Positions 5,459-31,545 of a DNA stretch of 55,132 bases are shown here, one piece after another. The DNA is from an uncultured Clostridium sp. (GTDB lineage Bacteria > Bacillota_I > Bacilli_A > RF39 > UBA660): the NCBI GenBank assembly GCA_964649245.1, contig CAZYOS010000002.1:1-55132 (forward strand), written 5' to 3'. Under the pieces are notes generated by a model, which made no database searches, was not told where the DNA came from, and worked only from the letters and a program-made list of their open reading frames with translations. Position 1 is the first letter of the stretch. Each line of letters begins with the position of its first letter. The translations under genes and the position numbers were made by a program.

Positions 5459-8400
5459 TTATGAATCGATTAAATACCATGCATAGAATACACTATTTGC
5501 ATAATTATCAGCATTGCCATTTGCCGTATCTAATGGATAATTAATAGTAAGGCCTGCATTATTAGGCAAAAATTCAAATCCGGTTAGATAAGGCGGAACT
5601 ACTCCAGCAAAAGTAACGGTAGTTAGATTTGTTGCGCTAGTAAATGCTCTTTCAGAAATAGCAATAATTCCAGAAGGAATAGTAATTCTTCTAAGCCTTG
5701 TATTACCAGTAAATGAACCACTCGCAATTACTTTTACCGTACTAGGAATAGTAAATGTATTTCCACTTAATGATTTAGCATTAGGCACTTTTATTAAGGT
5801 TTCCATGTCTTTACTATATAAGACTCCATTACTTGAAGCAAAATATAGATTGTTAGTATTAACATTAATAGTAGTTACATATTGATTTCCTGATAAGAAT
5901 GCATTACCTACATTCATTACATTAACTCCTAATGTAACCGTTGTAGCATTAGTAACATCATCAAATGCATCGGTTTCAATTTGTCTTACGGGATACGTTA
6001 CATTACTAATAGTGAATGTATCTGGAACACTAATATTATTACTTGATAAATAACCAGTAATTTTTATATAATCTACGTCCGCGTCAACAATTTCATATAC
6101 AAAATTTTGATAAGTATCTCCCAATTGCCTGATGTTTTGTAATCCCCATAAACTGTCATTTGAATAAGCATCCGTATACCCTCTAGGTACATATACGTAC
6201 AAATAACTTGTATACCATGTATATCCAAAGAAAGATTGTGGTGTTCTAGCTGGTAAAGTGGTTTCAGTTATTTGAGGAGGAACTTGAGTATTAATGTTAA
6301 TTCTAGTTAAATTATTAGTAGCATATGAATTATATAAAGCATAAGCACCAATTGATAATACACCAGTACCTAATGTTGCTGTTCTTAGGTTAGTACAGCC
6401 ATTAAATGCATAATCTTCTATGTAAGTAACCGAGTTAAACGTAATAGTTCTTAATGTAGTTGATTGTTCAAATGAATGAGCACCAATAGTAATTAAATTG
6501 CTACCGCTCAGTGAATATACATTTCTTCTATAGAATGCATAATCCCCAACATCAACAACAGTAGAAGGTAATGTTAAATTCCAGTTTACCCCAGAAACTA
6601 CATTAACTAAGTAGTAAGCTCTCTCACCGATACTTCTTACGAAGTAGTCATCTTCTCCTATTACTATTCTTGATGGTATTGTATAAGAAGAAGATATATC
6701 AGCACCATGATATTCAATGAGAACCCAACCTGTAGAACCATTAATATTAGCAAGTTTTACAGAATAAGCTCCAATATCATATCCATTATGTGTATAAGAT
6801 CCTTGAATTATACCCGTTTCATAAACATAAGGATCAAGTTCAGTAGGCAATATTTCTTGATATGCTTCAACCATAGTCATTGCACCCGCTGTACCAGAAG
6901 GAACATAAACTCTTAGTCTACTTCCTATAACTGTTCCACAATTAGAAAACGCGGTAGGATCAATCGTAATATTAATAGTACTTGAATAAGTTGTGTTATT
7001 AAATATTATTCTTGCAACATTTGTGTCATTTAAGAATGCATTTGCAGCAATACTAGTTACTGTACCAAGGTTAATAACTATCAGGTTGGCGTTATTTTGA
7101 AATGCCGATTCACCAATAGAATACAATCCTTCAAAAGTTGCTGCAGTTAAATTACTTGCACCATTAAATGCATTTTCTTTTATATATAAGCAATTATTAG
7201 CAGTTATGTTTCTAATACCAGTATTATTTTGAAATGCTGATACACCTATATTTAACAAATAATCACTGCTTATATCATAAGATGCTGTTCCATCAAATGA
7301 TGCATGTCCAAATGCATAGTCTCCTATTGAAATAACTGGTATACCAGAAGTTGCATTTTGACTAATTGAAGTTATAAATACAGACAAGTCAGAAATTGAA
7401 TGTCTAACTCGAATTGTAAGACTATATGTTGCACCTGGTTGTATGATATTATTATGAGTTACACTCGTTAGTACAGCAGTATTACCACTAATCACAGCAC
7501 CATTATTATCTGTTGATATTCCAGATATAGTTCCAGAGTTCGGCATATTAATTGTAACTCTCCATGCAGTAGTAGCAGTAGTTCCATTATTAGTAATATC
7601 AATAACAACATTTTTTACATAGTCGCTTCCTTCAATCCATCCAGTGCCATATGAAACCTCACTGCTTAAAAATCTATCATTCAAATCTAATAATGTTGGG
7701 AATTGATAACTACCATCTATTGTACTTCCGTGATATTCAACTATTTCATATCCATTGTTACCATTTATTGTAGTATTTTTTATTGAATAGTCTCCGATAT
7801 CTATTTCATCAATTAAACCACTAGGAATATAACTTCCAACTATATCATCATATGAATAAAAGTAAGGCTGATACTGTGTTGGAAAATGGGCTTTATAAAC
7901 ATCAACAAATTCTTCATTAGTTGTTGTAACTCCATTTGAAACATAGAATCTTTGCCTATTCTCGGTAGATGTTCCAATATTACTAAATACATTAGCATCT
8001 ATTGATAATGAAGGACTACTAGGAGAATCAAAGATTACTTGATATAAATACGGTGCATTTGTAATAGTATTCGCACCCATGGTTTGAACTTTACCAAAAT
8101 TCATTATGTATAAATTATTTGTATTTCTAAATACTCCTGTTCCTAATAAATTTAAGTTATTAAATGACCCTTGAGTAATAGATGATCCAGAGAATGCATA
8201 ATTATCTATTGTAACAACATTATTTAATGTTACATGTCTAATTCCAGAGTTATTAGCAAACGCATTCTTTCCTATATATAAGATATTACTTGATTCAATA
8301 TCAAATGTAGTACCAGTTTCAGTAGCAACATGAGAATAAGCATTTTCTCCAATAGATATAACATTATGAGATGTTGCATTAGGAACAGTAGTTCTAATGC

Positions 8401-11400
8401 TTGATATTTCAATATCTGTTATTCCATTAGTTGTACTCTTAATATGGAAATTAACTGTTTTAGAAGCACCTGCAGCTAATTTACCTATAGAAGCATTTCC
8501 ATTCTTAAAAGTTATAACACTTGTTCCATTTACCGCTGTAACTCCTGCACCAGTTTCACCATACATACCGCCATCAATAACAACATCAACTTCCCAAGCA
8601 CTTATTTCTAAATCACTCGTATTAGTCATTGTTACAGCGACAGAAACATCTCTTAATCCTGCTCTATTTACAAAATATGAAATATCTAAAGCATCAGTAC
8701 CAAGAGTAACAGTCGCGGGTAAAACATAACTACTATTTAAATCAGGTCCGTGATATTCAATTATTTCATAGTCAGTAACATCACTACCAGAAGCATTCTG
8801 TTTAGTTACCTCTCTTACGGAGAACAAACCAATATTATAATTAATTGCTCCAGTGTAATGGCCAATAATTGTACCAGTTGGATATATATAATCAGCTAAA
8901 TCTGTAAAAATACCTCTATAAAAATCAAGTAAATTGTTTTCATCAGGTACATACATTCTAAATCTATTAGCAATATTAGTACCTGTGTTTTCAAAAGCAT
9001 CACTTGCATAATTAACATTTCTAAGAGTATTAGTAAAAAATACACTAGTCAAATTAGGTGTTTCAGCTGCAGCTAAAGTTCCAACTTCAGTTACAGGACC
9101 TAGTTTAAGTCTGTAAAGTTCATCACAATTATAGAATGCTCTAGTTCCCAAAGTTTTAAGTTTCTCAAAGAATCCATAATGTATAGTACTTCCTTCAAAT
9201 GCCGATTCACCTATAGTAGCAACTTTTGCTGCAACTACATGACCAATATCAAATCCATAAAAAGCACCTTTGCTAATGTTTATAAGTTTTTCAGATTCAA
9301 TATTAAATTCAGAACCACTAGCAACAACTGTATTCTGATAAGCACCTTCACCTATAGATACAACATCTTTTGTTGTTCCGTTTGCTGTTAAATAAGTTGG
9401 TAAGTTTGAAGTTAAATCAGGTCCTTGATAACTAATTATTTCATATCCAGTCACACTGGCATTATTTGTATCTCTAACAGTAACAGTTCTAACTGTATAA
9501 TTAGATAAATTATAAGGAACAGCCATATACTGATATGAACCAACATCAATTCCAGTAATATAAATATAATTAGCATTATCAGGAAATTTTTCTTTATATA
9601 GTGATAATACAGTTTTTCCACTTGCAAGAGTAGCATCTGGAACATAAAATCTAAGTCTACCATCGATATAAGCTCCCCAATTATTAAAGAATGCATTAGT
9701 TCCCACAGTTAAATCAATTTCTTCAGTATTATTAACAAGTAAACTATTACCATTGTTAATATAAAATCTTTGCATTTGAGGACAATTAGAAAATGCATAA
9801 TCTCCAACAACAGAAAGAGTACCTACACTTGCTTCATATAGATTAAGAGAATTTGCAAATGCATAATCATCGATAGTTATAACATTATTAAGTTGAATTG
9901 TCTCTATAGGAGTATTATAAAATGCATAATTTCCTATATAAGTAGCCCTATTAGCAGTAATACCAGTTAAATTAGTTTGATAAAATGCATAATCTCCAAT
10001 GTACGTAACATTATTAAAGTACTCTACAGCAGTTAAATTAAGTCCATAAAATGCACTAGGATCTATTCTAGTTATAGTATCGGGTAGAGTTAATTTAACA
10101 CCACTCGTGTTTACAATATTCATTTCTCTAAAACTATTATTTCCAATTTCAGTAACATTCTTTGAAGAGCCCTGATATGTTATAGTTTCAGGAATTCCCA
10201 ATGTAGTAGCAGCAGCAGATAAATATTTATTAACAACATATGATATTCCAAGTCCTGTATTAGTATTAAACACAAAATATCTTCTATCATCATCTAAATT
10301 ACCACTTATAAATAAATATTCAGGAGAAATACCTTGAACATTAGAATAAGTTGATATACTTCCATTTGGAACGAATATTCTAGCACTTGTTCCAAAAGTA
10401 TTAGTTGCTAACGTAGGTGGAACAGAAGAAACAAATTTTACATATATAGAAGAGTCAAAAGCCGCACTTCCAATAGTTGTTACTGTACTAGGTATAGTAA
10501 TAAAATTAAATTCATCATCAGTTGAAGCAGGAATAGCTCCTAGTTGAACTCCAGAAAAAGCATTATTTCCTATTTCAGTAACAGTTTTAGGTAAAATAAC
10601 TGTTTTAAGAGTAGTCTTATTTAAAAAAGCATTATTAGGAATTTTATTATTAGTAGTTCCATCAGTAACTCTCGAATTGTATAAACTAATATATTCTAGT
10701 GAGGACATTGCACTACTGTTAGCATAAACGAAATCTTCAAGTTCAAAATACTGTGCATTTAATGTCCATATAACGAGTTTCTCAATATTATCTATATCCT
10801 GTGAAATAGTAGTAGATCCCTGATTTTCGAAGTAAGCTTCAAGAAGTCCCTGTAATGTATCCGGAGCCGCCTTAATATAAACTATATATGAATTTAATTC
10901 ATTTTCTATAGGAACAACAGATATATCATCTTGATTCGTTTGAATATCACCTATATCAAAGTTTTCTGAACCTCCAACAGTAATATCACCAGATGTAATA
11001 CCTTTAATTATCAAAGTATTTCCACTATTAGGTGCTAAATATGGAGCAGCATTAGATGGCAATAATATTCCATAACTGCCTAGTATTCCATAAATTTCTC
11101 CTAAATTATATACATAAATTTGAGCTTTCGTGTATGTTTCTTGTAAAGTCATATTACTAAAGTCCAATTGAGTAACTGATCCATTGTTTACAACTTCTAT
11201 ATTAGTTGAACCATCAGCAGCTGTAATATTTCCAACTACGACTTCGGGTCCAATAGTTATTCTTGAGTTAGAGTCAACAATCATATCTATAGGTACTAGT
11301 CCAGTTGAACTCTTTACTATATGAGCAGAATCTAAATATAATCCATCAGTTTCACCATCTTGTATTACATTAACATTAAATTCTCCACCAACCACGACAT

Positions 11401-12508
11401 CATATGAATTTTCGGATCCTACAATTGTTACATTTGCTTTTGGAGTATTCAATATAAAATTTTCTCCAACATTTAAACTTCCATATCCAGAAGCGTTAAT
11501 AGTAAGATTTCCAAGATTAGCAAATTCATACACTAAGTCCTGTGAAACATTTAAATTAAATCCATTAAGATCCAAGTTAACGCGCTTTGTTATATTTAAT
11601 GTACCAGACAAATTAATATTATCCATTAATCTAATAGTATCACCAGCAACTGCTGAATTAAGAATTTCTCTTAATTGAGTTTCGTTTTGAACATCAAGTA
11701 TTTGTCCTTCTCTATTCTCTGCAGTAATTACGCCAACTTGACTACTATATGCATTTAAATGAATAGATAGACTGCTATCGGAATATCTTCCAGTATTAAC
11801 TCCCGAATACATACCATAATCAAGTCTATATATTTTACTACTTTTAACATTTTCAACCGGAGCTGCAACAGTATCTATTTTCATTAAATTATTAAGCAAT
11901 GTCATATTTCTAACAGGTATAGCTGTATCATTTTCCATAGAAGCAGATGGTTGATGTGATGCTGCATAAGCTTCAAGTTTACTATCATATGTTCCTAAAA
12001 CAGTATCATTTACCGCACCAGTCACTTCATATAATCTATAATATAAAATTCCAGCAACTTGTGTTAAATCAGAAGATGGAGTAGAACTAGTAGATACTTC
12101 AATGTAATGGCCTTCTAAACTAAATGCTAATGAAAATTCCATATCTAAAGTACCAGTATTTTCAACTTCAATATATTTAGATCCTACTGTGATATTACTC
12201 ATATTAGTTTCATACATAATTGTTTGTACTTCATTATTATCAGATATTTCAATACCATCTTCATCATATTGCGTTATGTTATGTGAAATACGACCTGTAT
12301 TAAGTAAAGCCCCTGCTCCAGCAAATTCATCATATAGCCATGCAAATGACTCAGTTAAAATAAATGCTACAAATATGATAATAGCCAAAGATTTTCTAAT
12401 ATTCTTATTTTTCAATAATTCTTTAATATTATTAGATGCAAAAAAGTATTTTATATTTGTAAAACATTTATTTATTGCACTACTAATACTATGAATTATT
12501 TTTTTCAT
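5459..12508 (-). CDS. Giant (2,349 aa) surface adhesin: SipW-type signal, TasA/CalY-like N-domain, beta-helix-like segment, about five BspA-type LRR super-modules with Ig/CBM-like inserts
   Basis: The ATG at 12508 (MKKIIHS...) is preferred over the TTG at 12529 used by the ORF track. The signal ends ...AFILTESFAWLYDEF. The N-domain has TasA-like hallmarks (IEVENTGTLDMEFSLAF ... GRYSDSSLSIHLNAYSSQ). BspA/TpLRR-type repeats recur many times (IGNNAF/IGDYAF/IGESAF...L..I.LP..V). There is no LPXTG, SLH or choline-binding anchor. Confidence 0.8.
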   Translation of the reverse strand: MKKIIHSISSAINKCFTNIKYFFASNNIKELLKNKNIRKSLAIIIFVAFILTESFAWLYDEFAGAGALLNTGRISHNITQYDEDGIEISDNNEVQTIMYETNMSNITVGSKYIEVENTGTLDMEFSLAFSLEGHYIEVSTSSTPSSDLTQVAGILYYRLYEVTGAVNDTVLGTYDSKLEAYAASHQPSASMENDTAIPVRNMTLLNNLMKIDTVAAPVENVKSSKIYRLDYGMYSGVNTGRYSDSSLSIHLNAYSSQVGVITAENREGQILDVQNETQLREILNSAVAGDTIRLMDNINLSGTLNITKRVNLDLNGFNLNVSQDLVYEFANLGNLTINASGYGSLNVGENFILNTPKANVTIVGSENSYDVVVGGEFNVNVIQDGETDGLYLDSAHIVKSSTGLVPIDMIVDSNSRITIGPEVVVGNITAADGSTNIEVVNNGSVTQLDFSNMTLQETYTKAQIYVYNLGEIYGILGSYGILLPSNAAPYLAPNSGNTLIIKGITSGDITVGGSENFDIGDIQTNQDDISVVPIENELNSYIVYIKAAPDTLQGLLEAYFENQGSTTISQDIDNIEKLVIWTLNAQYFELEDFVYANSSAMSSLEYISLYNSRVTDGTTNNKIPNNAFLNKTTLKTVILPKTVTEIGNNAFSGVQLGAIPASTDDEFNFITIPSTVTTIGSAAFDSSIYVKFVSSVPPTLATNTFGTSARIFVPNGSISTYSNVQGISPEYLFISGNLDDDRRYFVFNTNTGLGISYVVNKYLSAAATTLGIPETITYQGSSKNVTEIGNNSFREMNIVNTSGVKLTLPDTITRIDPSAFYGLNLTAVEYFNNVTYIGDYAFYQTNLTGITANRATYIGNYAFYNTPIETIQLNNVITIDDYAFANSLNLYEASVGTLSVVGDYAFSNCPQMQRFYINNGNSLLVNNTEEIDLTVGTNAFFNNWGAYIDGRLRFYVPDATLASGKTVLSLYKEKFPDNANYIYITGIDVGSYQYMAVPYNLSNYTVRTVTVRDTNNASVTGYEIISYQGPDLTSNLPTYLTANGTTKDVVSIGEGAYQNTVVASGSEFNIESEKLINISKGAFYGFDIGHVVAAKVATIGESAFEGSTIHYGFFEKLKTLGTRAFYNCDELYRLKLGPVTEVGTLAAAETPNLTSVFFTNTLRNVNYASDAFENTGTNIANRFRMYVPDENNLLDFYRGIFTDLADYIYPTGTIIGHYTGAINYNIGLFSVREVTKQNASGSDVTDYEIIEYHGPDLNSSYVLPATVTLGTDALDISYFVNRAGLRDVSVAVTMTNTSDLEISAWEVDVVIDGGMYGETGAGVTAVNGTSVITFKNGNASIGKLAAGASKTVNFHIKSTTNGITDIEISSIRTTVPNATSHNVISIGENAYSHVATETGTTFDIESSNILYIGKNAFANNSGIRHVTLNNVVTIDNYAFSGSSITQGSFNNLNLLGTGVFRNTNNLYIMNFGKVQTMGANTITNAPYLYQVIFDSPSSPSLSIDANVFSNIGTSTENRQRFYVSNGVTTTNEEFVDVYKAHFPTQYQPYFYSYDDIVGSYIPSGLIDEIDIGDYSIKNTTINGNNGYEIVEYHGSTIDGSYQFPTLLDLNDRFLSSEVSYGTGWIEGSDYVKNVVIDITNNGTTATTAWRVTINMPNSGTISGISTDNNGAVISGNTAVLTSVTHNNIIQPGATYSLTIRVRHSISDLSVFITSISQNATSGIPVISIGDYAFGHASFDGTASYDISSDYLLNIGVSAFQNNTGIRNITANNCLYIKENAFNGASNLTAATFEGLYSIGESAFQNNANLIVINLGTVTSIAANAFLNDTNVARIIFNNTTYSSTINITIDPTAFSNCGTVIGSRLRVYVPSGTAGAMTMVEAYQEILPTELDPYVYETGIIQGSYTHNGYDIGAYSVKLANINGSTGWVLIEYHGADISSSYTIPSRIVIGEDDYFVRSIGERAYYLVNVVSGVNWNLTLPSTVVDVGDYAFYRRNVYSLSGSNLITIGAHSFEQSTTLRTITFNSVTYIEDYAFNGCTNLRTATLGTGVLSIGAYALYNSYATNNLTRININTQVPPQITETTLPARTPQSFFGYTWYTSYLYVYVPRGYTDAYSNDSLWGLQNIRQLGDTYQNFVYEIVDADVDYIKITGYLSSNNISVPDTFTISNVTYPVRQIETDAFDDVTNATTVTLGVNVMNVGNAFLSGNQYVTTINVNTNNLYFASSNGVLYSKDMETLIKVPNAKSLSGNTFTIPSTVKVIASGSFTGNTRLRRITIPSGIIAISERAFTSATNLTTVTFAGVVPPYLTGFEFLPNNAGLTINYPLDTANGNADNYANSVFYAWYLIDS

Positions 12509-12518: not shown

Positions 12519-13397
12519 CTAATCTTCAATTATTATAATATCTGCCACTTTTTCACTATATTCTTTAATTTCATCAGATAGTTTTGAATTAATTAAAGTA
12601 TTTTCTAATCCTCTGCTAGGAGTAGAAACTTTCTTTTCCTCCTTATATTTCATTATTTCATTTCTTAAATCATCACTTATAATAGTTTTTTCAAGTTCAC
12701 GATCTATTTCTTCTTTAAACTCTCTACTATAAATTGTTTTTTCAAGTTCCTCATTTTTATTTTTAATTTCTACAACCATATTGTCTGGCTTTTTAGTTTT
12801 AAACAATGAGAATTTTTTCTTATTTTTGTTTTTATAATCATTTAACAATTGTATTTCTTCTGAAGTTAATCCATTTGGTTTAATTTCATGTTTAATATTT
12901 GATAACTGCTTTATTAAAATTATTATTAATGGAATAAATACTAGTATCACAAACCCAATTTTCGATCTAATAATTTTACTTACTAGACTTATTAAGAACA
13001 TTCTATAAACAAGTTTCCCATATATCTGACTTCCTTTTACTACGGGGTCTATCATATTTGTTACCGTTCCTTTAGTATAAAATAAATACTCACCTGTATC
13101 AGAAACATCAACTGTTTTAACCATATGTGTTACTGTTTTTCCTTTAAAATCTGATTCCAATCCTTGGTAAGTAACTATATCTCCTTCTTTTATTGTTTTA
13201 GGTTCAACCTTTTTAACAAGTATTACATCACCAACTTCCAAATTAGGTGACATAGAACTGGTCACAATTACGAATGTTCTGTATCCAAATATACCATCTT
13301 TTTTAAACACAAATTTTTGAGCCAATATAAAGACACATATCACTATTGATAATACAAATAATAAATTTTGAATAAAATTAAATATTTTTGTCTTCAT
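12519..13397 (-). CDS. sipW: Archaeal/ER-type signal peptidase I (SipW-like) paralog 1 with long charged C-terminal tail
   Basis: RBS AAAGGA. An N-terminal TM helix is followed by the Ser box VTSSMSPNLEVGDVILV and the His box KTVTHMV. A second TM helix is followed by a roughly 125-aa Lys/Glu-rich tail containing the repeat ELEKTI(Y/I)S. Box E is divergent (TKGTVTNMID instead of GDNN). Confidence 0.75.
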   Translation of the reverse strand: MKTKIFNFIQNLLFVLSIVICVFILAQKFVFKKDGIFGYRTFVIVTSSMSPNLEVGDVILVKKVEPKTIKEGDIVTYQGLESDFKGKTVTHMVKTVDVSDTGEYLFYTKGTVTNMIDPVVKGSQIYGKLVYRMFLISLVSKIIRSKIGFVILVFIPLIIILIKQLSNIKHEIKPNGLTSEEIQLLNDYKNKNKKKFSLFKTKKPDNMVVEIKNKNEELEKTIYSREFKEEIDRELEKTIISDDLRNEIMKYKEEKKVSTPSRGLENTLINSKLSDEIKEYSEKVADIIIIED

Positions 13398-13409: not shown

Positions 13410-13976
13410 CTATGGTTTCAAAAAATTAATATGCTCTATAGATAAACTTTTATCAGCAACCTCATTAGCAGCAGTTTTATCAATTGTAATATACCAATAT
13501 ATGCTTTTTGTTTCTAAAGGTTCTACTGTAAAATTATCAATAAATTTAAGTATTTTTTCACCACTTGTTGATTCTTCAATGTTTTCACCTAAATTAAGTT
13601 TTTTTATCATTGGAGAAGTAGTACCAAAATACATTTTAGGACTTAATGCTGATACATCACCAGTAATATCTGAAAAAACTATTGAAGTAGATGCTCTAGT
13701 GTTGCCATTATTTGTTATGTCTATTCTATATAATTTTGTATCATTAGGTGCCATATTAACAACGCTAAATATAGGAGTGGTAATTAATTGATAAGTTAAT
13801 GTTTCAGAATTATATTCATATAATTCAACATCAATATCTAATGTATTAATTATCAGGTCTCTATTATAATTAACAATTTCACCTTGAGAGGCAACAGTAA
13901 CCATCCATGCTACAGAAGCAGCTATTAATAAAATTGTTATTATTAAATTAAAATATGATTTTATATTTTCTTTCAT
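13410..13976 (-). CDS. Small TasA/CalY(camelysin)-like secreted protein, SipW-type signal
   Basis: The signal is ...LLIAASVAWMVTVASQ. Further hallmarks are NTLDIDV, YRIDITNNGNTRASTSIVF and the C-terminal ADKSLSIEHINF. Confidence 0.55.
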   Translation of the reverse strand: MKENIKSYFNLIITILLIAASVAWMVTVASQGEIVNYNRDLIINTLDIDVELYEYNSETLTYQLITTPIFSVVNMAPNDTKLYRIDITNNGNTRASTSIVFSDITGDVSALSPKMYFGTTSPMIKKLNLGENIEESTSGEKILKFIDNFTVEPLETKSIYWYITIDKTAANEVADKSLSIEHINFLKP

Positions 13977-13984: not shown

Positions 13985-15058
13985 CTAGTTAAACACTACT
14001 GTTGTTACATAAGATTCAGGACTCACATTTGCAACTGCTGCATATCTTACATATACTGTTTGTCCTCTGGCAAATGTCATGGATGAATTGGTTACCGCAG
14101 TCCATGATGTTGAACTTGAACTCGTTGTATTATATTCCATAGAAGTATCTAAATTAGTTATAGTTAGTAATGAGTTGTTAGCATAAACGTTTGGAGCATC
14201 TCTTAATACATTAGCACTTCCGAATTTAATAGTAGCATCTATTGTTGATGAAGCAAGAATATTTGTACAATCAAGATCCCCTCCTTCAAGCCATATTTTA
14301 ACATTTACTTTTACAGTAGTATTTGCAGGAATAGTAAGAAGAATTTTATTTAAATCTATCGATGCATCATCACTGGTTCCTCTTCCGCCATTTTTTTCAT
14401 CAAATGTATATACAGTTTGATTCCCTATAAGATTGGAAGAAGTAGATGTATCAAAATAATCAAATTCACCGATTGCTCTTACTGCCCTTGTTGTATATGG
14501 TGCAGCTGTCGTTCCCTTTTCTGCAGTATCTCCAAATATATATAATACATCATAATTTTCATCTCTTATTGTAATTGCTACTCTAATTGCATCACTTGCA
14601 GCTCCGGAAATAGAAGTATCATTATGTAAGTACACATGTTTCGCATAATTTTCGGTTTGCAAGTAGAAATCATAATCAACACAACCATATTGTTCCATAT
14701 TTAAATGCCCATCTGCTTCAGGATTAATAAGTACATATTGAGGCATATTATTTGCAAGTCCAGCACCAAAATCTATTGTATAAAATGTTAAACCATCAAC
14801 ACTTGACATTTGTTTCAGTTCAAATAAACTGAAATCATTAAATATTTCTTCCAAATTAACAACAGTTCTTGCAGCACTATCAGGAGTTAGCCTAATTACC
14901 AAACCTTCAGCAGCACTAACCTTTATATTGTTCTGAGTAATACTAGGATTACTTTTATCAGAAAACCATGCATAAGAAGCAACAGACAAAAGAACTGCAA
15001 CTTCAACTATAGCAATTATTGTTGATGAAAATGTAGTTTTATGTTTTATTTCTTTCAT
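13985..15058 (-). CDS. Large TasA-superfamily-like secreted protein (W-x-EG-x-D-x-DC family), SipW-type signal
   Basis: RBS AAAGGAAAA. The signal is ...LLSVASYAWFSDKSN. The central motif is SDAIRVAITIRDE and the C-terminal motif is VKIWLEGGDLDCTNILASSTIDATIKFGS. Confidence 0.6.
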   Translation of the reverse strand: MKEIKHKTTFSSTIIAIVEVAVLLSVASYAWFSDKSNPSITQNNIKVSAAEGLVIRLTPDSAARTVVNLEEIFNDFSLFELKQMSSVDGLTFYTIDFGAGLANNMPQYVLINPEADGHLNMEQYGCVDYDFYLQTENYAKHVYLHNDTSISGAASDAIRVAITIRDENYDVLYIFGDTAEKGTTAAPYTTRAVRAIGEFDYFDTSTSSNLIGNQTVYTFDEKNGGRGTSDDASIDLNKILLTIPANTTVKVNVKIWLEGGDLDCTNILASSTIDATIKFGSANVLRDAPNVYANNSLLTITNLDTSMEYNTTSSSSTSWTAVTNSSMTFARGQTVYVRYAAVANVSPESYVTTVVFN

Positions 15059-15088: not shown

Positions 15089-16207
15089 CTAATATTCTAA
15101 TATCGTTTTACTTGATGCAAAATATTGCATGTTTTCACTTTTTCTTACATATACAATGTCTCCGGTTTCAAATGTAGGATTGTTGTTTTCATTGTAAGTA
15201 GTCCAATTTAAGCCATAATCACTTGAATACTCCATACCTTCAACATAGCCATCTATTGTATTTCCTGTTCCTACTAATACAACTGGTGCAACATTATCAA
15301 GCCCTTTATTTATTGCTGAAAATTGAAGATTCATTTTAAATAATCCTCCAGTTAATGCGGTCACATTATCTCTGTCATTTCCCTCAATCCATATCCTTAC
15401 TAATACTTTTCTTACACCTGCATTTTCGTTAATATCTGTAGTAGTTATTACAGGGTCTCCACATGCACTTTGATTGGCAGCTGACGCACATATTTCATCT
15501 TTGACATTTATTACATCTTCGATGGTAACTGGATTGTTAGCGGCCTCGATATATTTATAATCTTGTGGGTTTGTTGAATTTATATTAGCAGTACATGTCC
15601 CAGTACAACTAATTTCATAATTCTTATTAGGAGCCCAAACTAAACTAGCTTCCGAATTCATAACATATTCCCCATCAATCAATTCATTTTCTATAAATGC
15701 AATTCTAACTGATGATGCAATTAAGTCTCTACTAAAATCACCATCAATACTTATTCTTTCTACATCACTACCTAATAAGTCAGTAGACAAAGTGCCAACA
15801 GCAGGAGATACATATGATGAAGCATCTAGAAATATTGATGCATTAGCAGCCAATTTGAACATAAGACTAAATTCTAAATAATCGCTTGTACCATTAGCAG
15901 TAGTAAATGATACAGGAGTTCCATCATCTCTTTTATTTGAAGGAATGTACATATTAATTCCATTGCCTGTTATTTCGTGTTTAAATTCAAAATCACCAGG
16001 AAGATTTAATGCTGTTTCAGTAATCCATGTTTCTCCTGAATCAAGAGAAAGCAACAAGTTATAATGAGCATCAGCCCTTAATGTTACATCATTTGCTTTA
16101 ACTTCCTTATTATCAGTAAGCCATGCATAAGTAGCAACTAAAACAGTTACTATAATAAGTAATAATTCTAAACCAGCAATCCAAGTTTTCTTATGTGATT
16201 TAAACAT
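15089..16207 (-). CDS. Large TasA-superfamily-like secreted protein (W-x-EG-x-D family), SipW-type signal
   Basis: RBS AGGAG. The signal is ...VTVLVATYAWLTDNKE. Further motifs are SSVRIAFIENE, LVWAPNKNYE and the C-terminal VRIWIEGNDRDNVTALTGGLFKMNLQFSA. Confidence 0.6.
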   Translation of the reverse strand: MFKSHKKTWIAGLELLLIIVTVLVATYAWLTDNKEVKANDVTLRADAHYNLLLSLDSGETWITETALNLPGDFEFKHEITGNGINMYIPSNKRDDGTPVSFTTANGTSDYLEFSLMFKLAANASIFLDASSYVSPAVGTLSTDLLGSDVERISIDGDFSRDLIASSVRIAFIENELIDGEYVMNSEASLVWAPNKNYEISCTGTCTANINSTNPQDYKYIEAANNPVTIEDVINVKDEICASAANQSACGDPVITTTDINENAGVRKVLVRIWIEGNDRDNVTALTGGLFKMNLQFSAINKGLDNVAPVVLVGTGNTIDGYVEGMEYSSDYGLNWTTYNENNNPTFETGDIVYVRKSENMQYFASSKTILEY

Positions 16208-16215: not shown

Positions 16216-17325
16216 CTATTCTAAATTATTAGTTATTTTCAACATATCTTTTCTATATTTTTTAAAATATTTTTTAAATATAGCTTCAATTCTATTTTCT
16301 CTCTTAATTTTTTCTCCATAAGCAAGTTTAAATTCTTTATTAATAGATTTTTTAAATTTAAATTCATCTATTTCATCATTACTATCTACATAATCTTTTA
16401 TAGCTTTAGAAATAACATATTCACTATAAGATTTCTTTTTAGTTCCCTTATCCTCTTTTGAATTAAGAACTAAATAATCAATTAGGAAAGCCTGATCCAT
16501 GTTATCCTTAACTTCACCCGTAATATCATAATTATTATCTTCATTAACTTCTTCTTTAGCATTAACATTATATCTTTCAATAAATTCCCATAATTCTAAT
16601 GCCTTTTTGAAATCATTATTTTTAAGAATAACATTAGTTTTTCTTATTGGAGATTTAACAAATACTATATTAGCAGAAGCAAGTTCTTTAAAAAATGCAC
16701 TATGCATAAAGTCAGCAATTATCAATTGAATTTTTTCTAATCTTTGATCAACTGTTAAGCCGGAGCCATTTACCGTTAGATCCTCAAATACATTACTTTC
16801 CATATTCAAATTAATTTTAACTATTTCTTTACCAAGTTTAGTTTCAGAATTATAATTATATTGTTTATTAACATTTGAACTTGATCCACCAGTCATAAGC
16901 TCTTTTCTTTTAGCAATAAACATTGAAAGATTCATAAGTAGCGTATATATAAATCTATTTTCATATATATCATAACTTTCTTCTTTATTTATGTTTAATA
17001 CTTTAGAAGGTGTAATAGTATCTTCTACTGGATCATATTTTTGTATAAAATTTGTATGAGTAGCTAAATGTACAACACTCTCTTGTGTTAATTTTTTTGC
17101 CTTTTCAACATTAACTACCTCTTCTTCTTGCTGAATAAACTTTTTTGGATTTCTTACAATGTTATCTAAACTAGGAATACATTCCTCAATCTTATCAATC
17201 CAACTATAATCAAATTGAACTTTTTTTTGACTATCATGCATTAATAATTTAGAATTAGCATTATCGATAAACTCATTTTTTGTTTTTTCATCAGCTCTAT
17301 CAATTAATCTATTTATTTTTTCCAT
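16216..17325 (-). CDS. DUF2357 / McrC-N-terminal-like partner of the McrB-like GTPase (paralog 1); no nuclease motif seen by eye
   Basis: RBS AGGTGA, 7 nt after the upstream gene. It carries the motif YDIYENRFIYTL (compare the tpENRF motif of DUF2357 proteins) and SPIRKTNVILKNNDFKKALELWEFI. It is about 55-60% identical to the 26475-27569 product by eye. Confidence 0.5.
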   Translation of the reverse strand: MEKINRLIDRADEKTKNEFIDNANSKLLMHDSQKKVQFDYSWIDKIEECIPSLDNIVRNPKKFIQQEEEVVNVEKAKKLTQESVVHLATHTNFIQKYDPVEDTITPSKVLNINKEESYDIYENRFIYTLLMNLSMFIAKRKELMTGGSSSNVNKQYNYNSETKLGKEIVKINLNMESNVFEDLTVNGSGLTVDQRLEKIQLIIADFMHSAFFKELASANIVFVKSPIRKTNVILKNNDFKKALELWEFIERYNVNAKEEVNEDNNYDITGEVKDNMDQAFLIDYLVLNSKEDKGTKKKSYSEYVISKAIKDYVDSNDEIDEFKFKKSINKEFKLAYGEKIKRENRIEAIFKKYFKKYRKDMLKITNNLE

Positions 17326-17332
17326 AACTCAC

Positions 17333-18907
17333 CTACATTAATTTCTTAAGTCTTTCTAAATATGCTTTACATTCATTCATATTTTCTTTTCCAAACTCTG
17401 TATTTAAGTATGAAATATATCCATCAATTTCATCTCTAATAAATGAAAGATTTAATTGTTCAAATTTTCTTAATACTTTTTTACACAATATATAATCAAA
17501 TCCATCTATTTCTTTTCCACCACAGCCAACGTATACAGGAACGAATTCCTTAATATGTTTAACAATTCTGTTACCAAAAGCAAGTCTAAAGTGTTCAATA
17601 ACATAATCATCCATTTTTTCTAGTTTATCAAGAATTTCTTGACTAACTGGATGCTCAGCTTTAGCTTCATCAAATTTACTTTCAAGATATTTACTGCTTA
17701 TTTCTAATTGATCAGTAGGAGGAGCATCAAATGGCACACCTTTTTCATTTATATCTATTGGCATTGCACGGTCGTAAACCTTATCAGTTACCATAAATGT
17801 TGAATCATCATTATTTATTGTTCCAATATACCACATATTATCAGGTATCTTTAATTTACCTTTTTCTATTTTAATTGGATCATTTGGCCAAACATTAGGT
17901 ACTAGGTCTATAATCCACTCATCTCTACTAGGCATTTCAAGTATAGACAACATTTCTGCAAAATAATATTCAACACGAGCTATATTCATTTCATCTAAAA
18001 TTGTTAAATAAACTATATCTTTATATTTTGCTTCATACATTTTACTTAAAACTTCTGTTTCGTTAAACTTTTTAGTAAATTCGTTAAAGAATCCAAATAG
18101 TTCTGTCCTATCTCTCCATGATGGCTGTACTGAAGCAATTACTGCATCGTTTTTAGTAAATTTACCCCAAGCATATGGAAGAGAAGTTTTACCTGTACCA
18201 GAGATACCTTGTAAAATAACTAATCTAGTAGCACCTAAAGCTGATACAAATAGTCTAATAATATCAATTCTATAATATAATCTCATTTTTGAAGCAGAAA
18301 ACAATCTAAACTGTTCACATAATTCTTCAAGAGTAAATTTATTATTAAAGTTAGGTGGCTTATATCCCTCCATTGCAATATCAATTTGGGTAAGTTTATA
18401 GAATCTACTTTTTTCTCTATCAGCAGAACTAACAGCAGATTCTTCTTTCTTTTCACCAGTTCCAGCATTTTCTTTATCTTCAGCTACATTCTCAGGTAAT
18501 GCTTCTGTAGCACTTACTCCAGGTTGCAATCCAATTTGGCTTACTTTCATAGCAAGTATATCTTCTTTTTCTTGAGTTAATTTATAGACGGCTTGATTTA
18601 AATCACCTATTTCTTGTAATAATGATTCTTGCTCAACTAAAGTTTTTCTTATTCTTATATATTTTCTTACTAAAAGCACTATCATAAGTATTATCATTGC
18701 AAGTATTATTAAAAACACTAAAATAACTAATCCAACTACTACCCAAGCAGGACCAGATATTTCGCTTTTATATCCATTAACAATATTAAAATATGCTTTA
18801 AAATTAAACATATCATATAAACCTAATCCTATGTTTTTAAAGATTCTTATTAAACCATTAAAAAATTGGGACATAAAGTCAAATAGAAATCTTATAAAAA
18901 AATTCAT
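17333..18907 (-). CDS. Membrane-anchored McrB-family AAA+ GTPase (paralog 1), 524 aa
   Basis: The start is re-set to the ATG at 18907 (RBS AGGAG, downstream of the predicted promoter). An N-terminal Phe/Gly-rich amphipathic segment is followed by one TM helix (AWVVVGLVILVFLIILAMIILMIVLLV-RKYIRIRK, positive-inside) and a coiled coil. The AAA+ domain has Walker A LQGISGTGKTSL, Walker B/McrB motif ILDEMNIARVEYYFAEMLS and YIGTINNDDSTFMVTDKVYDRA (compare McrB MNTADRS..D.ALRRRF). Confidence 0.7.
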   Translation of the reverse strand: MNFFIRFLFDFMSQFFNGLIRIFKNIGLGLYDMFNFKAYFNIVNGYKSEISGPAWVVVGLVILVFLIILAMIILMIVLLVRKYIRIRKTLVEQESLLQEIGDLNQAVYKLTQEKEDILAMKVSQIGLQPGVSATEALPENVAEDKENAGTGEKKEESAVSSADREKSRFYKLTQIDIAMEGYKPPNFNNKFTLEELCEQFRLFSASKMRLYYRIDIIRLFVSALGATRLVILQGISGTGKTSLPYAWGKFTKNDAVIASVQPSWRDRTELFGFFNEFTKKFNETEVLSKMYEAKYKDIVYLTILDEMNIARVEYYFAEMLSILEMPSRDEWIIDLVPNVWPNDPIKIEKGKLKIPDNMWYIGTINNDDSTFMVTDKVYDRAMPIDINEKGVPFDAPPTDQLEISSKYLESKFDEAKAEHPVSQEILDKLEKMDDYVIEHFRLAFGNRIVKHIKEFVPVYVGCGGKEIDGFDYILCKKVLRKFEQLNLSFIRDEIDGYISYLNTEFGKENMNECKAYLERLKKLM

Positions 18908-18948
18908 AAAAATACTCCTATTATACCTATTATTCAGTATACATACTA

Positions 18949-18977
18949 AGTATATCATTATTCGACATTATTCTCAA
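18949..18977 (-). promoter_or_regulatory. SigmaA-like promoter with extended -10 (TTGAGA-17-TGaTATACT)
   Basis: The -35 TTGAGA is at 18977-18972, the spacer is 17 nt, and TGa plus TATACT is at 18957-18949. It lies just downstream of the sipW-2 terminator and upstream of the RBS/ATG at 18907. Confidence 0.45.
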
Positions 18978-19024: not shown

Positions 19025-19054
19025 AAAAAAAGAAAATCAAGCAACTTGATTTTC
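19025..19054 (-). terminator. Intrinsic terminator straddling the sipW-2 stop codon
   Basis: On the minus strand the sequence reads GAAAATCAAG-TTG-CTTGATTTTC followed by TTTTTTTAT. The stem is a perfect 10-bp inverted repeat; with a 3-nt loop the innermost pair may stay open. Confidence 0.65.
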
Positions 19055-19621
19055 CCTCTTTATTTGTTCTATTAGCTCTCTCTTTTTTTCTTCCATTATA
19101 GTACTAATAAATTTATATATTTGATATATAAATAGTATAAACAATGGGAAGACAATGAATACAAAGAATCCTACTCTTCCTGATAAGAATGAGAATATAG
19201 TACCTAAAACAGGTATTCTTGTACCAGTGTACATGGATACTACTGAACTAGGAAATACATCTTCAGAATCGACTGTTGGATTATTATCTCCTTTTGTAGT
19301 ATAAGAAACAGATCCACCTAAATCATTAACAGCGGTAATACGGTGAGTTTTAATAATTAAATCCTTACCCTCATATCCAACAAAAGATATTACATCACCT
19401 TTGCTTAAATTATATGGATTTGCAACTGCTTTAGTAACTATCAAATCCCCCGTCATAATTGCTGGTTCCATTGAACCAGATTGAATGTTCATCAACATGT
19501 ATCCACCAACTTCAGGAAGACCCTTTTCATTAGTCTTTAATGAAGCAAATGTCATTACTACGGCAATTACAATGATAATTACCAAGAGAGTATTTCCTAA
19601 AACTGATAATACTTTTTTCAT
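19037..19621 (-). CDS. sipW: Archaeal/ER-type signal peptidase I (SipW-like) paralog 2
   Basis: RBS AGGTGA. It has an N-terminal TM helix, the Ser box QSGSMEPAIMTGDLIV, the His box IKTHRI, box E TKGDNNPTVD and a C-terminal TM helix. At 194 aa it matches B. subtilis SipW in size. Confidence 0.85.
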   Translation of the reverse strand: MKKVLSVLGNTLLVIIIVIAVVMTFASLKTNEKGLPEVGGYMLMNIQSGSMEPAIMTGDLIVTKAVANPYNLSKGDVISFVGYEGKDLIIKTHRITAVNDLGGSVSYTTKGDNNPTVDSEDVFPSSVVSMYTGTRIPVLGTIFSFLSGRVGFFVFIVFPLFILFIYQIYKFISTIMEEKKRELIEQIKRENQVA

Positions 19622-19641: not shown

Positions 19642-20742
19642 CTATGGTGTTGCTACTTTAGCATTTAAATTAATAGTAACTCCAACAGCAGTACCAAGTG
19701 TAGCTGTATTTTCACAGTCAACATCTTGTCCTTCTATCCAAATATAAACTCTTACTTTTGTAATACCTTGTGAAACTGTAACAACAGTAGGATATCCTGT
19801 AAGTGTACTACTATTCCAAGCAGTTGCACCAGTTAATGTTCCATCAGCAACAGTAGTTCCTTTATTAAAGTGTCCATTACTTGTTTCAGTTTGTATTAAA
19901 TTACCAACTCCACTTGTTTGAGATGGTGTAGCTAAGAAATTAGTAGTACTAGTTAAATCAACATTTGTTCCAACTGCAGTAGCACCCTTATAAGCTTTAG
20001 TTTGTCCAGCTGTTACATAACCTCTATTAATAGCAGTTGCAGTATGTGTATCAGCATTTGGTTCCCAAATTGAGTAAGCAGTATTTGTTGCTAATGCCCA
20101 AGCAGCTGTAGCACTTGAAGCATTACCAGAATTAATAAATCCTACTCTTATTGAACTTTTAAGTCCAGCGTCTTGTCCACCTTCGTTTATGCTTACAGTT
20201 GAAGTTGGAAGTAACCCTACCTCAACAGCATCTGGATTAGATGATTGAATAAAGATATCAAATGCAATAAAATATGCATTTGCAGCTTCAGTCCATGTTG
20301 CACTTCCAGCAACACAAGCAGAAGGAGTAGTGAATGTATTATCAGAACAACTTCCGTTTGTTTCGGTAGCGGCAGTTAAATTTATACTTCCATCTTCTTG
20401 TAATTGTCCATAATACATTTTAAATTTTCCAGAATCCATTGTTCCATCAGTAGATACTGGTTGTAAATAATCACCGACATTTCCTGTTATATTTGTAGCA
20501 TCAGGAAATTGTGTAACTGAACCAGTATAATAAGCATTTCTTATATGATCAGTTGTAAGTGTTGTTTTCCAATCGGTAGCATCAGTAGATACCTGAATAC
20601 CATTAGTAGCAGATACTTGAACATCAATTCTACCTAATTGAATCAATGTGTTAGCCGTAAACCATGCATAGGTTGCAGTTGATAAGGCAACACCCGTTAA
20701 TAATAGCATAGCAAATGCTATTATAATGTTTTTCTTTTTCAT
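19642..20742 (-). CDS. Large TasA-superfamily-like secreted protein (W-x-EG-x-D-x-DC family), SipW-type signal; candidate fibre subunit
   Basis: The signal is MKKKNIIIAFAMLLLTGVALSTATYAWFTAN. The protein is Thr/Ala/Gly/Ser-rich. Further motifs are SSIRVGFINS, YSIWEPNADTH and the C-terminal VRVYIWIEGQDVDCENTATLGTAVGVTINLNAK. sipW-2 follows directly. Confidence 0.6.
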   Translation of the reverse strand: MKKKNIIIAFAMLLLTGVALSTATYAWFTANTLIQLGRIDVQVSATNGIQVSTDATDWKTTLTTDHIRNAYYTGSVTQFPDATNITGNVGDYLQPVSTDGTMDSGKFKMYYGQLQEDGSINLTAATETNGSCSDNTFTTPSACVAGSATWTEAANAYFIAFDIFIQSSNPDAVEVGLLPTSTVSINEGGQDAGLKSSIRVGFINSGNASSATAAWALATNTAYSIWEPNADTHTATAINRGYVTAGQTKAYKGATAVGTNVDLTSTTNFLATPSQTSGVGNLIQTETSNGHFNKGTTVADGTLTGATAWNSSTLTGYPTVVTVSQGITKVRVYIWIEGQDVDCENTATLGTAVGVTINLNAKVATP

Positions 20743-25041: not shown

Positions 25042-25062
25042 AAAAAAAGGAGTAAAACTCCT
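25042..25062 (-). terminator. Short hairpin plus T-run overlapping the stop of the 460-aa gene
   Basis: On the minus strand AGGAG-TTTTA-CTCCT is followed by TTTTTTTG. Confidence 0.4.
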
Positions 25063-26443: not shown

Positions 26444-26474
26444 TTTAACTCCTTTCATTTATTTCTGTATTTTA

Positions 26475-27569: not shown

Positions 27570-27586
27570 CTATTCCTCCAATAACT

Positions 27587-30242: not shown

Positions 30243-30267
30243 ATATTCTCCTTATTATTCTTTATTA

Positions 30268-30296
30268 AGTATATCAAACAATGAAATTAAATGCAA
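30268..30296 (-). promoter_or_regulatory. SigmaA-like promoter with extended -10 (TTGCAT-17-TGaTATACT)
   Basis: The -35 TTGCAT is at 30296-30291, the spacer is 17 nt, and TGa plus TATACT is at 30276-30268. It follows the sipW-3 hairpin immediately. Confidence 0.45.
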
Positions 30297-30310
30297 TATT
30301 TTATAAAATA

Positions 30311-30950: not shown

Positions 30951-30957
30951 AATTCAC

Positions 30958-31538: not shown

Positions 31539-31545
31539 TAAATAT

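Follow-up and report, generated by a model that had tools for sequence, protein, structure and literature searches.

The window, the whole 55,132-nt stretch of contig CAZYOS010000002.1 that was analysed, carries a cassette of about ten genes that ends in a giant gene (Table 1). The gene order is p232 – p366 – sipW-2 – membrane-anchored McrB-like AAA+ – DUF2357 protein – p372 – p357 – p188 – sipW-1 – giant. The giant starts with an ATG at 12508, preceded 5 nt upstream by an AAAGGA ribosome-binding site, and its stop codon occupies positions 5459-5461 of the minus strand. It follows the sipW-1 stop codon by exactly 10 nt and closes the run of genes transcribed in its direction, since the gene downstream (4771-5400) lies on the plus strand; both points had been made in the original prediction. 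The sipW-1 operon described there was rightly recognised but drawn too small, as the real unit is the cassette of about ten genes with its two SipW paralogues and its McrB-like/DUF2357 pair. The N-terminal peptides quoted earlier are all found in the giant translation. This reading frame is a real gene with both close and distant orthologues in metagenomes: Logan contig L001 encodes an identical protein, and the orthologues in L002 and L003 have full-length identities of 66% and 45%, respectively.

Table 1. Coordinates of the giant gene, its parts and the other genes of the cassette.
Feature	Position	Strand	Basis or remarks
Giant gene, 2,349 aa	5459..12508	-	Long signal, TasA-like N-domain, conserved 376-aa region, BspA-type LRR super-modules
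BspA/LRR_5 blocks, aa 641-2349	5462..10588	-	LRR_5 matches, motifs, internal repeats
CBM_2-like beta-sandwich insert, module 4, aa 1634-1704	7397..7609	-	32.3 bits, cut-off 24
CARDB-like weaker counterpart, module 3	within aa 1255-1385	-	19 bits
Conserved region, aa 265-640, possibly beta-helix	10589..11716	-	Conserved in long homologues
TasA-like jelly-roll domain, aa 57-264, putative fibre handle	11717..12340	-	Homologues, AF2 model, Foldseek, hhalign
Signal, aa 1-56	12341..12508	-	Basic N-region (38 aa) and hydrophobic segment, ending S-F-A56/W57, predicted SipW cleavage site
sipW-1, SipW/archaeal-type signal peptidase I	12519..13397	-	TIGR02228 70.8 bits, cut-off 51.85
p188, small secreted beta-sandwich subunit	13410..13976	-	Homologous to first half of giant N-domain (hhalign)
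p357, secreted subunit, W-x-EG-x-D-x-D/C family	13985..15058	-	
p372, secreted subunit, W-x-EG-x-D-x-D/C family, DUF4073-like C-terminal domain	15089..16207	-	
DUF2357 protein, like N-terminal part of McrC	16216..17325	-	PF09823 50.7 bits
Membrane-anchored McrB-like AAA+ NTPase	17333..18958	-	Weak McrB matches; PADLOC PDC-M26A E 2e-33
sipW-2, second SipW paralogue	19037..19621	-	NF046067 129 bits, TIGR02228 95.9 bits
p366, secreted subunit related to p372 and p357	19642..20742	-	
p232, EG-x-D-x-EC motif, N-terminal hydrophobic segment without A-W motif	20765..21463	-	

Eight related loci, with GC contents of 26-46%, have the cassette in full or partially. The giant is its last gene in L002, L003, L005 and L007-L010, at protein identities down to 23%, and it usually abuts or overlaps sipW-1, whose orthologues adjoin the giant or sit near it in L002, L003 and L005-L010. 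These orthologues lack the C-terminal tail of sipW-1, which is rich in lysine and glutamate. The second paralogue, sipW-2, has its own orthologues in L008, L009 and L010. The best-conserved cassette protein is the McrB-like AAA+, which has hydrophobic segments at aa 65-102; its orthologues reach 601-847 bits in L003 and L008-L010, and the truncated copy in L005 reaches 420 bits. The DUF2357 protein, in which no nuclease domain was detected, is conserved in L002, L003, L005 and L007-L010. Among the secreted proteins, p188 has 24 homologues, all unnamed (one further member of its cluster is annotated 'hypothetical protein'), and its AF2 model (pLDDT 82.4), disordered at residues 28-44 after the signal, retrieved only generic beta-sandwiches with Foldseek, not TasA. 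By its sequence, p232 is a candidate uncleaved membrane anchor.

As originally proposed, the giant has leucine-rich repeats of the BspA type: Pfam LRR_5 matches seven stretches (303.6 bits), and its sequence relatives in the PDB are BspA-type LRR proteins, PcpA included. Internal repeats recur with a period of about 230-340 aa. The repeated modules of the original prediction are there, but four of them are full and motif-bearing, flanked on both sides by partial LRR blocks, where about five had been predicted. The motifs R(F/M/V)YV(P/S) and (Y/W)x(I/L)(I/V)(E/S)Y(H/Q)G each occur four times, paired by block at aa 953/1022, 1184/1247, 1520/1587 and 1866/1928. While the motifs stand, the Ig-like domain that was said to follow RxYVP and end at EYHG is probably wrong anatomy. 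We take RxYVP for the cap that normally closes an LRR_5 block at its C-terminus and the ~35 aa before EYHG for a short hairpin or N-cap instead of an Ig domain, and the beta-sandwich inserts detected by Pfam lie only after EYHG, in modules 3 and 4. Nor could the predicted beta-helix-like stretch be substantiated. The corresponding region, aa 265-640, is kept in all long homologues (phmmer, E 1e-20 to 1e-127) and, except where LRR_5 begins at its end, is without a Pfam match. In short relatives that share the N-domain, Beta_helix or Pectate_lyase_5 matches come just after it, but a phmmer search with aa 265-640 did not match these proteins; the region is possibly a beta-helix, its tie to these relatives coming from a reading of the sequences by eye.

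The predicted lack of a cell-wall anchor was borne out. The giant has a single hydrophobic segment (aa 39-57 by hydropathy), neither LPXTG nor a hydrophobic C-terminal tail, and no SLH, LysM or choline-binding match in Pfam; a C-terminal sorting signal or hydrophobic tail was seen in none of the 36 long homologues. Known BspA/TpLRR proteins are held at the surface by choline-binding repeats, LPXTG, Por/T9SS signals or lipid anchors. The giant family shares the LRR_5 repeat type with such surface proteins (for example S. pneumoniae PcpA, PDB 4CP6) but has none of their anchors, and a TasA-like N-domain instead.

Searches of Pfam, NCBIfam and the PDB sequences with this N-domain gave no direct match, and its direct sequence similarity to B. 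subtilis TasA is below detection. A phmmer search with aa 1-300 against 1.84 billion representatives found 58 homologous proteins, 36 of them longer than 1,000 aa with the domain at their N-terminus. The short relatives among them (E 5e-7 to 1e-3) do pass the cut-offs of Pfam PF12389 Peptidase_M73 (up to 31.6 bits, cut-off 22.5) and TIGR04088 cognate_SipW (up to 27.2, cut-off 19). The family profile aligns with TasA over the signal, cleavage site, first strand and NxGxL strand (hhalign, E 2.5e-4, with a probability of 43% against the single TasA sequence), and with the p188 family at a probability of 96.4% (E 1.4e-9). The AF2 model of the domain is of good quality (pLDDT 88.1, pTM 0.79), and only one Foldseek match in the PDB, to the TasA fibre 8aur_A (E 3.4e-4, probability 1.00), has E<1e-3; it comes with a large rmsd and TM-scores of 0.38/0.41 that are low in part because the signal helix was modelled too. 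The monomer model confidently shows the first strand of the domain folded back, as is likewise the case in monomeric TasA. The originally proposed likeness to TasA thus stands as to fold and by transitive homology, though not as something that a direct sequence search detects, and the combination supports placing the N-domain in the TasA/camelysin superfamily. For the p372/p357 family, the signal region was the only link to the giant N-domain that could be made.

The proposal of a SipW-type signal also fared well. In the hhalign alignment the TFA-WF of the giant family falls on the TWA-AF of TasA, whose mature chain in 8AUR begins at A28, directly after the aligned Ala. The motif [ST][FY][ASG]-W ends the signals of the giant, p188, p357, p372, p366 and p216, and those of their orthologues, at all loci. 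It is kept in all the long giant homologues, 25-303 residues from the start, and W57 is invariant in the homologue alignment A1. Cleavage between A56 and W57 by a locus-encoded SipW is thus predicted from the sequence. The N-regions ahead of the hydrophobic segment are long, variable and basic, reaching about 280 aa in giant homologues. As regards p216, it is a Peptidase_M73 protein at the Pfam cut-off (22.5 bits) and lies beside a third sipW in the window.

Given the TasA-related N-domain and the last place in a conserved fibre-building cluster, the giant most likely sits on a fibre instead of being anchored in the cell wall. The best explanation of the whole, to which we give about an even chance, is that SipW processes it and that it serves a donor-strand fibre as tip or nucleating adhesin. 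The protein would be exported via Sec and cut between A56 and W57, after which its N-domain would join it, by donor-strand complementation, to a heteropolymeric fibre made of the cassette's other SipW-signal proteins (p188, p357, p372 and p366), which p232 may anchor in the membrane. The homology of the N-domain to p188 supports a pilin-like handle such as a tip or decorating subunit should have. At the distal end the giant would act as the tip adhesin, and probably also as nucleator by providing the first donor strand, a part that TapA is proposed to play for TasA, and TafC in Tafi. Its ~2,080-residue beta-rich and BspA-LRR part would project outwards and may bind host or microbial surfaces. 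No NTPase requirement is known for TasA systems, and the conserved McrB-like/DUF2357 pair therefore means that the mechanism is not simply that of TasA.

The long N-regions count against a fibre-borne tip adhesin, as some 280 aa would be unusual for a signal that is simply discarded. They suggest an N-terminal function of their own, and such a cytoplasmic tail could be a target of the membrane-anchored AAA+ of the cassette. The giant might then be a membrane-tethered adhesin, with its single N-terminal hydrophobic segment, the only anchor available, kept as a signal anchor, or with the protein membrane-bound after cleavage; the LRR rod would span the wall and the TasA-like domain would be a stalk base or docking site, not a fibre subunit. 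We consider this unlikely: the -3/-1 residues and the invariant +1 Trp match the motif of the small secreted subunits and align with the TasA site, two dedicated SipW genes are conserved, one usually abutting the giant gene, and it is p232, without the motif, that looks like the uncleaved protein of the set.

Equally doubtful is that the giant self-polymerises or is distributed along the fibre, whose LRR arms would then form a bottle-brush with no single tip; this assumes an N-domain with both donor strand and acceptor groove. That domain is indeed a complete TasA-like domain with its first strand folded back in the monomer model, stand-alone relatives of about 190 aa exist and presumably polymerise, and L004 carries tandem giant genes. 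Nevertheless, per cassette there are three to five small subunit genes but a single giant gene, always last; a steric cost would be expected if every subunit bore a 2,080-aa passenger; and the proposed archaeal precedents put two-domain proteins at the tip. The absence of any kind of anchor in the giant family, and the occurrence of the same N-domain with other passengers (e.g. a lone beta-helix) in loci that lack the McrB-like pair, would also fit a secreted matrix protein or soluble adhesin, released into matrix or medium, for which the TasA-like domain is only a module for SipW export and processing. This seems the least probable, as a folded jelly-roll of ~210 aa far exceeds what SipW recognition needs and is conserved together with a paralogous small subunit and the whole cassette.

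The B. subtilis tapA-sipW-tasA operon (TasA structures 8AUR and 5OF1) resembles the cassette in its SipW-type signal peptidase, in signals ending at the aligned T-x-A/aromatic site and in its fibre, the best structural match of the giant N-domain. TapA is an accessory protein proposed to start TasA assembly by strand complementation (PMC10151520), comparable to the assembly-starting role proposed here. Unlike that system, the cassette has two SipW paralogues, at least four other subunit genes and an integral McrB-like AAA+/DUF2357 pair; no TapA homologue was seen in it, and the TasA-like domain is only the first 9% of the 2,349-aa LRR protein.

In its architecture the cassette also resembles the haloarchaeal Tafi, with its tip adhesin TafC, adapter TafE, major subunit TafA, anchor TafF and signal peptidase I TafD (PMC11821415). 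Both would be multi-subunit TasA-superfamily fibres with a dedicated signal peptidase I, a putative membrane anchor and a two-domain protein (an N-terminal pilin-like donor-strand part and a C-terminal adhesive part), which for TafC is a proposed tip adhesin joined by a donor strand (PMC11821415). However, Tafi subunits use the Tat pathway whereas the cassette signals look Sec-type, TafC carries a laminin-G-like domain in place of about 2,000 aa of BspA LRR, the membrane span is C-terminal in TafF and N-terminal in p232, and an AAA+ module is not reported for Tafi. AbpX-type loci, also of the TasA superfamily, likewise encode minor subunits and predicted tip proteins of varied structure along with a signal peptidase I (bioRxiv 10.64898/2026.01.04.697558). 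There DUF5305 is the accessory protein and the bacterial loci are associated with SLH-type anchoring proteins; no LRR giants or McrB-like genes are described in the accessible text, unlike in the cassette. A tip adhesin on a TasA-superfamily fibre, already proposed in archaea for Tafi and for AbpX loci, is thus no new principle, and to call the giant a new way of displaying BspA-type adhesins was an overstatement. A clostridial SipW-dependent matrix fibre, as proposed here, has a parallel in the C. perfringens SipW-BsaA matrix pilin (TIGR04090), whose polymers reportedly owe their stability to intermolecular isopeptide bonds (PMC11580942). The proteins of the window showed no similarity at the BsaA level; the short N-domain relatives have sub-threshold TIGR04090 matches.

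The gene for the giant LRR protein lies where the original prediction had placed it, at the end of the sipW-1 operon: the coordinates agree, the interval between the sipW-1 stop and the ATG of the giant is exactly 10 nt, and, since the convergent gene downstream is on the opposite strand, the giant gene is the last of its transcription direction (Table). An assembly chimera or artefact was rejected because the identical protein is present on an independent Logan contig (L001) and full-length orthologues occur at 66% identity in L002, from a MAG of an uncultured Clostridium, and at 45% in another contig, L003. The locus scan with a single sequence gave two loci only. The G+C content of the window is 26%. 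Contig L003 (CAZHOG010000003.1) is labelled as a Muribaculaceae MAG, with 25.8% G+C, a cassette of the clostridial type and this 45% identical giant, and it may be mis-binned.

Direct sequence comparisons do not connect the N-terminal domain of the giant (the N-domain, aa 57-264) with TasA. Residues 1-330 had no match to PF12389 (Peptidase_M73) even at E<=10, nor did the N-domain match any NCBIfam model at this threshold (with no direct TIGR04088 match); for this domain the PDB sequences gave no match with either the giant protein or the 36-sequence family profile, and no TasA chain was found; BLASTP of the N-domain against the neighbouring proteins and against TasA was not significant. Another protein database, searched with both the domain and the profile, yielded no matches. 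Since phmmer, run exhaustively against 1.84 billion representatives, recovered 58 homologues, 36 of them giants with the domain at the N-terminus, it seems that the former database or its word index misses the family.

Four lines of evidence tie the N-domain to TasA: transitive homology, the predicted fold, the alignment with TasA and the small paralogue p188. Five homologues (P0038, P0039, P0043, P0052 and P0058) match the N-domain at whole-library E values of 5e-7 to 1e-3 and themselves score 23.2-31.6 bits with PF12389 (cut-off 22.5), and the domain is therefore linked to this family through proteins that pass its model; short relatives also pass TIGR04088 (cognate_SipW), with up to 27.2 bits against 19. 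The homologue alignment also yielded a confident AlphaFold2 model (pLDDT 88.1, pTM 0.79), which had the TasA fibre chain 8aur_A as its sole Foldseek match below 1e-3 in the PDB (E 3.4e-4, probability 1.00), the next matches being viral jelly rolls at E>5e-3. The TM-score is a modest 0.38/0.41, lowered because the model takes in the signal helix and also the beginning of the following domain, and the modelling thus gives moderate support to a TasA-like jelly-roll fold. Comparison of the family profile with B. subtilis TasA by hhalign, at E 2.5e-4 and a probability of 43%, paired the signals, the cleavage sites, the first strands and the NxGxL strands of the two; the TasA sequence used agrees residue for residue with the 8AUR chain in the PDB. 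Finally, hhalign shows homology between p188 and the first half of the N-domain (probability 96.4%, E 1.4e-9). The predicted TasA-like domain is thus borne out, with moderate rather than strong support, as a divergent member of the TasA superfamily.

Behind this domain, the BspA-type nature of the leucine-rich repeats is clear, with LRR_5 (PF13306) matching seven stretches of the giant at 303.6 bits against a gathering score of 27.7 and with the BspA-type structures 4gt6, 4h09 and 4cp6, including that of pneumococcal PcpA, as sequence relatives of the region in the PDB. In anaerobes of the gut and mouth, few kinds of large surface protein are as common as the BspA-type LRR proteins, and for many of these we know of no established mode of cell attachment. 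The prediction of about five super-modules needs some revision. Self-comparison does detect internal repeats, which recur about every 230-340 aa, and the motifs R(F/M/V)YV(P/S) and xEY(H/Q)G are both present, in four copies each (aa 953/1022, 1184/1247, 1520/1587 and 1866/1928), which makes four complete modules with both motifs, flanked on either side by partial LRR blocks. Going by BspA-type proteins in general, we take the RxYVP motif to cap an LRR_5 block at its C-terminal end; the approximately 35 residues before EYHG are presumably a hairpin or N-cap and not an Ig domain. The beta-sandwich inserts that Pfam detects, one CARDB-like and one CBM_2, follow EYHG in two modules only. Pfam assigns nothing to residues 265-640, which are kept in every long homologue. 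Short relatives have Beta_helix or Pectate_lyase_5 matches right after the N-domain; phmmer with residues 265-640 did not match these proteins, so that the link to a beta-helix is one made by eye only.

Coordinates of features in the window, in related contigs and in the giant protein
Feature	Position	Strand	Remarks
Giant ORF	stop 5459-5461, ATG at 12508	(-)	2,349 aa; AAAGGA 5 nt upstream of ATG
CARDB-like insert	giant aa 1255-1385		Pfam, 19 bits
CBM_2 insert	giant aa 1634-1704		Pfam, 32.3 bits (cut-off 24)
sipW-1	12519-13397		TIGR02228, 70.8 bits
Gene downstream of giant	4771-5400	opposite to giant	
Glycosyltransferase-TPR gene	3652-4716	(+)	
McrB-like/DUF2357 pair 1	16216-18958	(-)	inside the giant's cassette
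McrB-like/DUF2357 pair 2	McrB-like 27587-29107, DUF2357 26475-27569	(-)	near sipW-3
Third SipW module	25061-32287	(-)	p216, p177, sipW-3, p380, McrB-like-2, DUF2357-2, p465
sipW-3	30330-30950	(-)	
p216	31637-32287	(-)	PF12389 at cut-off, 22.5 bits; one of further TasA-like ORFs
p465	25061-26458	(-)	N-terminal stretch of ~135 aa, one hydrophobic segment (aa 135-153)
p232 family	window 20765-21463; L008 756-1460; L009 1137-1835		N-terminal hydrophobic segment, G(N/S)FT(I/V) strand, terminal EG-N-D-x-EC
EAL-domain gene	L008 1-715; L009 1-1089		
p399	21460-22659		
tRNA gene	43274-43344	(-)	
Tandem N-domain proteins	L012 4136-7744		non-LRR passengers

The expectation that the giant has no wall or C-terminal anchor was confirmed by motif, hydropathy and Pfam scans. 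Its only hydrophobic segment is at aa 39-57; it has neither an LPXTG motif nor a C-terminal hydrophobic tail, and Pfam detects no SLH, LysM or choline-binding domain. A C-terminal anchor is likewise absent from all 36 homologues of more than 1,000 aa, in which the few LPxT matches are internal. What the giant does share with every other secreted member of the cassette is the motif [ST][FY][ASG]-W that closes the hydrophobic segment and whose Trp does not vary in any of three separate alignments. In the hhalign alignment mentioned above, S-F-A56|W57 of the giant occupies the same columns as T-W-A|A of TasA, and the TasA chain in 8AUR begins at A28, directly after T-W-A. Among the giants the motif lies 25-303 residues from the start, the extreme being P0009, and in this protein as well as in P0016, P0018, P0019 and P0021 the hydrophobic segment is preceded by an N-region of 100-280 aa rich in Lys, Arg and Glu. 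Basic N-regions of this length are not what one expects of a signal that is merely cut off and discarded. Inspection by eye revealed no conserved twin-arginine before the hydrophobic core in the subunits of the window or their orthologues; p232 has RR in its signal and its L008 orthologue has KR.

The gene order of the cassette is p232, p366, sipW-2, McrB-like AAA+, DUF2357, one to three p372/p357-like genes, p188, sipW-1 and the giant, and as far as the contigs reach phmmer recovered this set and order in L002, L003, L005, L007, L008, L009 and L010, while L006 carries the last three genes only. These loci span 26-46% G+C, with giants of as little as 23% identity. The association of SipW with the giant (sipW-1, sipW-2 and sipW-3 in the window) is kept in L002, L003 and L005-L010, sipW-1 being two genes before the giant in L010; sipW-1 and sipW-2 are paralogues, each with its own orthologues. 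The window's sipW-1 has a Lys/Glu-rich C-terminal extension of about 115 aa, which its orthologues in L003, L005, L006 and L008-L010 (187-205 aa) lack. Such homologues as were looked up are unnamed or annotated as hypothetical protein.

Among the small proteins, the p372/p357 profile matched none of the PDB sequences, hhalign aligned it with the N-domain in the signal only, and the p188 model gave only generic beta-sandwiches with Foldseek. The p232 protein and its orthologues lack the putative cleavage motif but share EG-x-D-x-EC with the p372 family, which suggests that p232 may stay uncleaved and anchor the fibre in the membrane. In the distant loci L008 and L009 an EAL-domain gene lies directly upstream of the p232-like gene, a hint of c-di-GMP control; no EAL domain is detectable in p399, the window gene at that position. 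Rfam revealed no riboswitch in the window, its only match being a tRNA gene, and the promoter/terminator scan performed no better than on shuffled sequences. Just past the end of the cassette is a gene that encodes a fusion of a family-2 glycosyltransferase with TPR repeats.

The AAA+ protein, apparently membrane-anchored, is the best conserved of the cassette (full-length orthologues score 601-847 bits, the truncated L005 copy 420), and its association with the fibre genes may prove more novel than the fibre-adhesin reading. Its core weakly resembles McrB (E 2e-4), with hydrophobic segments at the N-terminus in place of the DNA-binding domain, and in its partner Pfam detects DUF2357 only and no nuclease domain; the pair therefore differs from a McrBC restriction system, with its DNA-binding McrB and PD-(D/E)xK McrC. 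A second, paralogous pair (phmmer E 1e-187 for the AAA+ proteins and 1e-63 for the DUF2357 proteins) lies in the third SipW module. That module ends with p465, whose hydrophobic segment is followed by Asp/Asn/Gly-rich DxDxDGxxD-like repeats with Cys, which from their sequence look like calcium-binding motifs, and by a C-terminal domain related to p216. A stray restriction system was rejected as the main reading since the pair has a fixed internal position in six loci whose contigs include it, at 26-46% G+C (the position is the same in L003, L005, L008, L009 and L010), and is duplicated beside sipW-3. The pair looks like a part of the fibre system instead, and would then be a McrBC-type NTPase co-opted for fibre assembly, the other reading being a defence module that is unusually tightly linked. 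An ambitious version, which we consider rather unlikely, makes the cassette an undescribed fibre machine in which a TasA-superfamily donor-strand fibre bears the giant as its LRR tip and the AAA+/DUF2357 pair drives or gates export, assembly or release; within it, a nuclease-less McrBC-type motor recruited to surface biogenesis would possibly act on the long cytoplasmic N-regions.

In the simpler mechanism, the giant would be exported by Sec and cleaved by SipW at A56|W57, and its TasA-like domain would link it by donor-strand complementation to a fibre polymerised from the small subunits. The giant would be at the distal end, where it could serve in adhesion and might also nucleate the fibre as donor of its first strand. 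The conserved N-terminal strand motif of the N-domain, with its invariant Gly (G72), and the disordered segment after the signal in the p188 model are hints only of such complementation. Three other placements of the giant remain. It could be a membrane-tethered adhesin, and here both the single hydrophobic segment, which ends in the putative cleavage site, and the long N-regions have to be considered; it could be a repeating or lateral subunit, carried along the fibre by the same TasA-like domain; or, having no anchor of its own, it could be a released matrix protein, the conservation of its N-domain together with the cassette and with the paralogous p188 being the feature to set against this. 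Besides the N-regions, the McrB-like/DUF2357 pair is awkward for the simpler mechanism. All in all, the observation behind the original prediction was largely right, and its interpretation of the giant as a fibre-borne adhesin, with homology, fold and synteny behind it, is plausible though unproven.

The closest characterised bacterial system is the tapA-sipW-tasA operon of B. subtilis, whereas the closest architecture is archaeal, that of the haloarchaeal Tafi, for which a two-domain tip adhesin (TafC), an adapter (TafE), a major subunit (TafA), an anchor (TafF) and a signal peptidase (TafD) have been proposed (PMC11821415). The window and contigs L003, L005 and L008-L010 similarly combine in one locus a two-domain candidate tip protein, small subunits and a signal peptidase I, a match in architecture only; Tafi subunits have Tat signals, whereas by eye none is conserved on those of the cassette. 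AbpX-type loci with predicted tip and minor subunits beside a signal peptidase I are also described in a preprint (bioRxiv 10.64898/2026.01.04.697558). In view of these two proposals, placing an adhesin at the tip of a TasA-superfamily fibre is not new in principle, and the claim of a new way of displaying BspA-type adhesins goes too far. What does appear to be new is that the setting is clostridial, and hence bacterial, that the passenger is a giant BspA-LRR region, that SipW is present as two paralogues and that an AAA+/DUF2357 module is included; among the papers searched, none names both SipW and DUF2357, and the two naming both SipW and BspA were unrelated to this system. If the fibre-adhesin reading is true, the display of an anchor-less family would be accounted for by its N-terminal TasA-like handle and dedicated SipW peptidases, the idea of tip adhesins, hitherto put forward for TasA-superfamily fibres of archaea, would reach bacteria, and TasA-type fibres would be adhesive organelles besides matrix scaffolds.

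The N-domain also occurs with non-LRR passengers, in proteins of about 480-590 aa (two in tandem in L012, a locus without the McrB-like pair, and P0038, P0039, P0043 and P0049), two of which have Beta_helix or Pectate_lyase_5 matches. With such varied passengers behind it, the N-domain seems to be a reusable handle.
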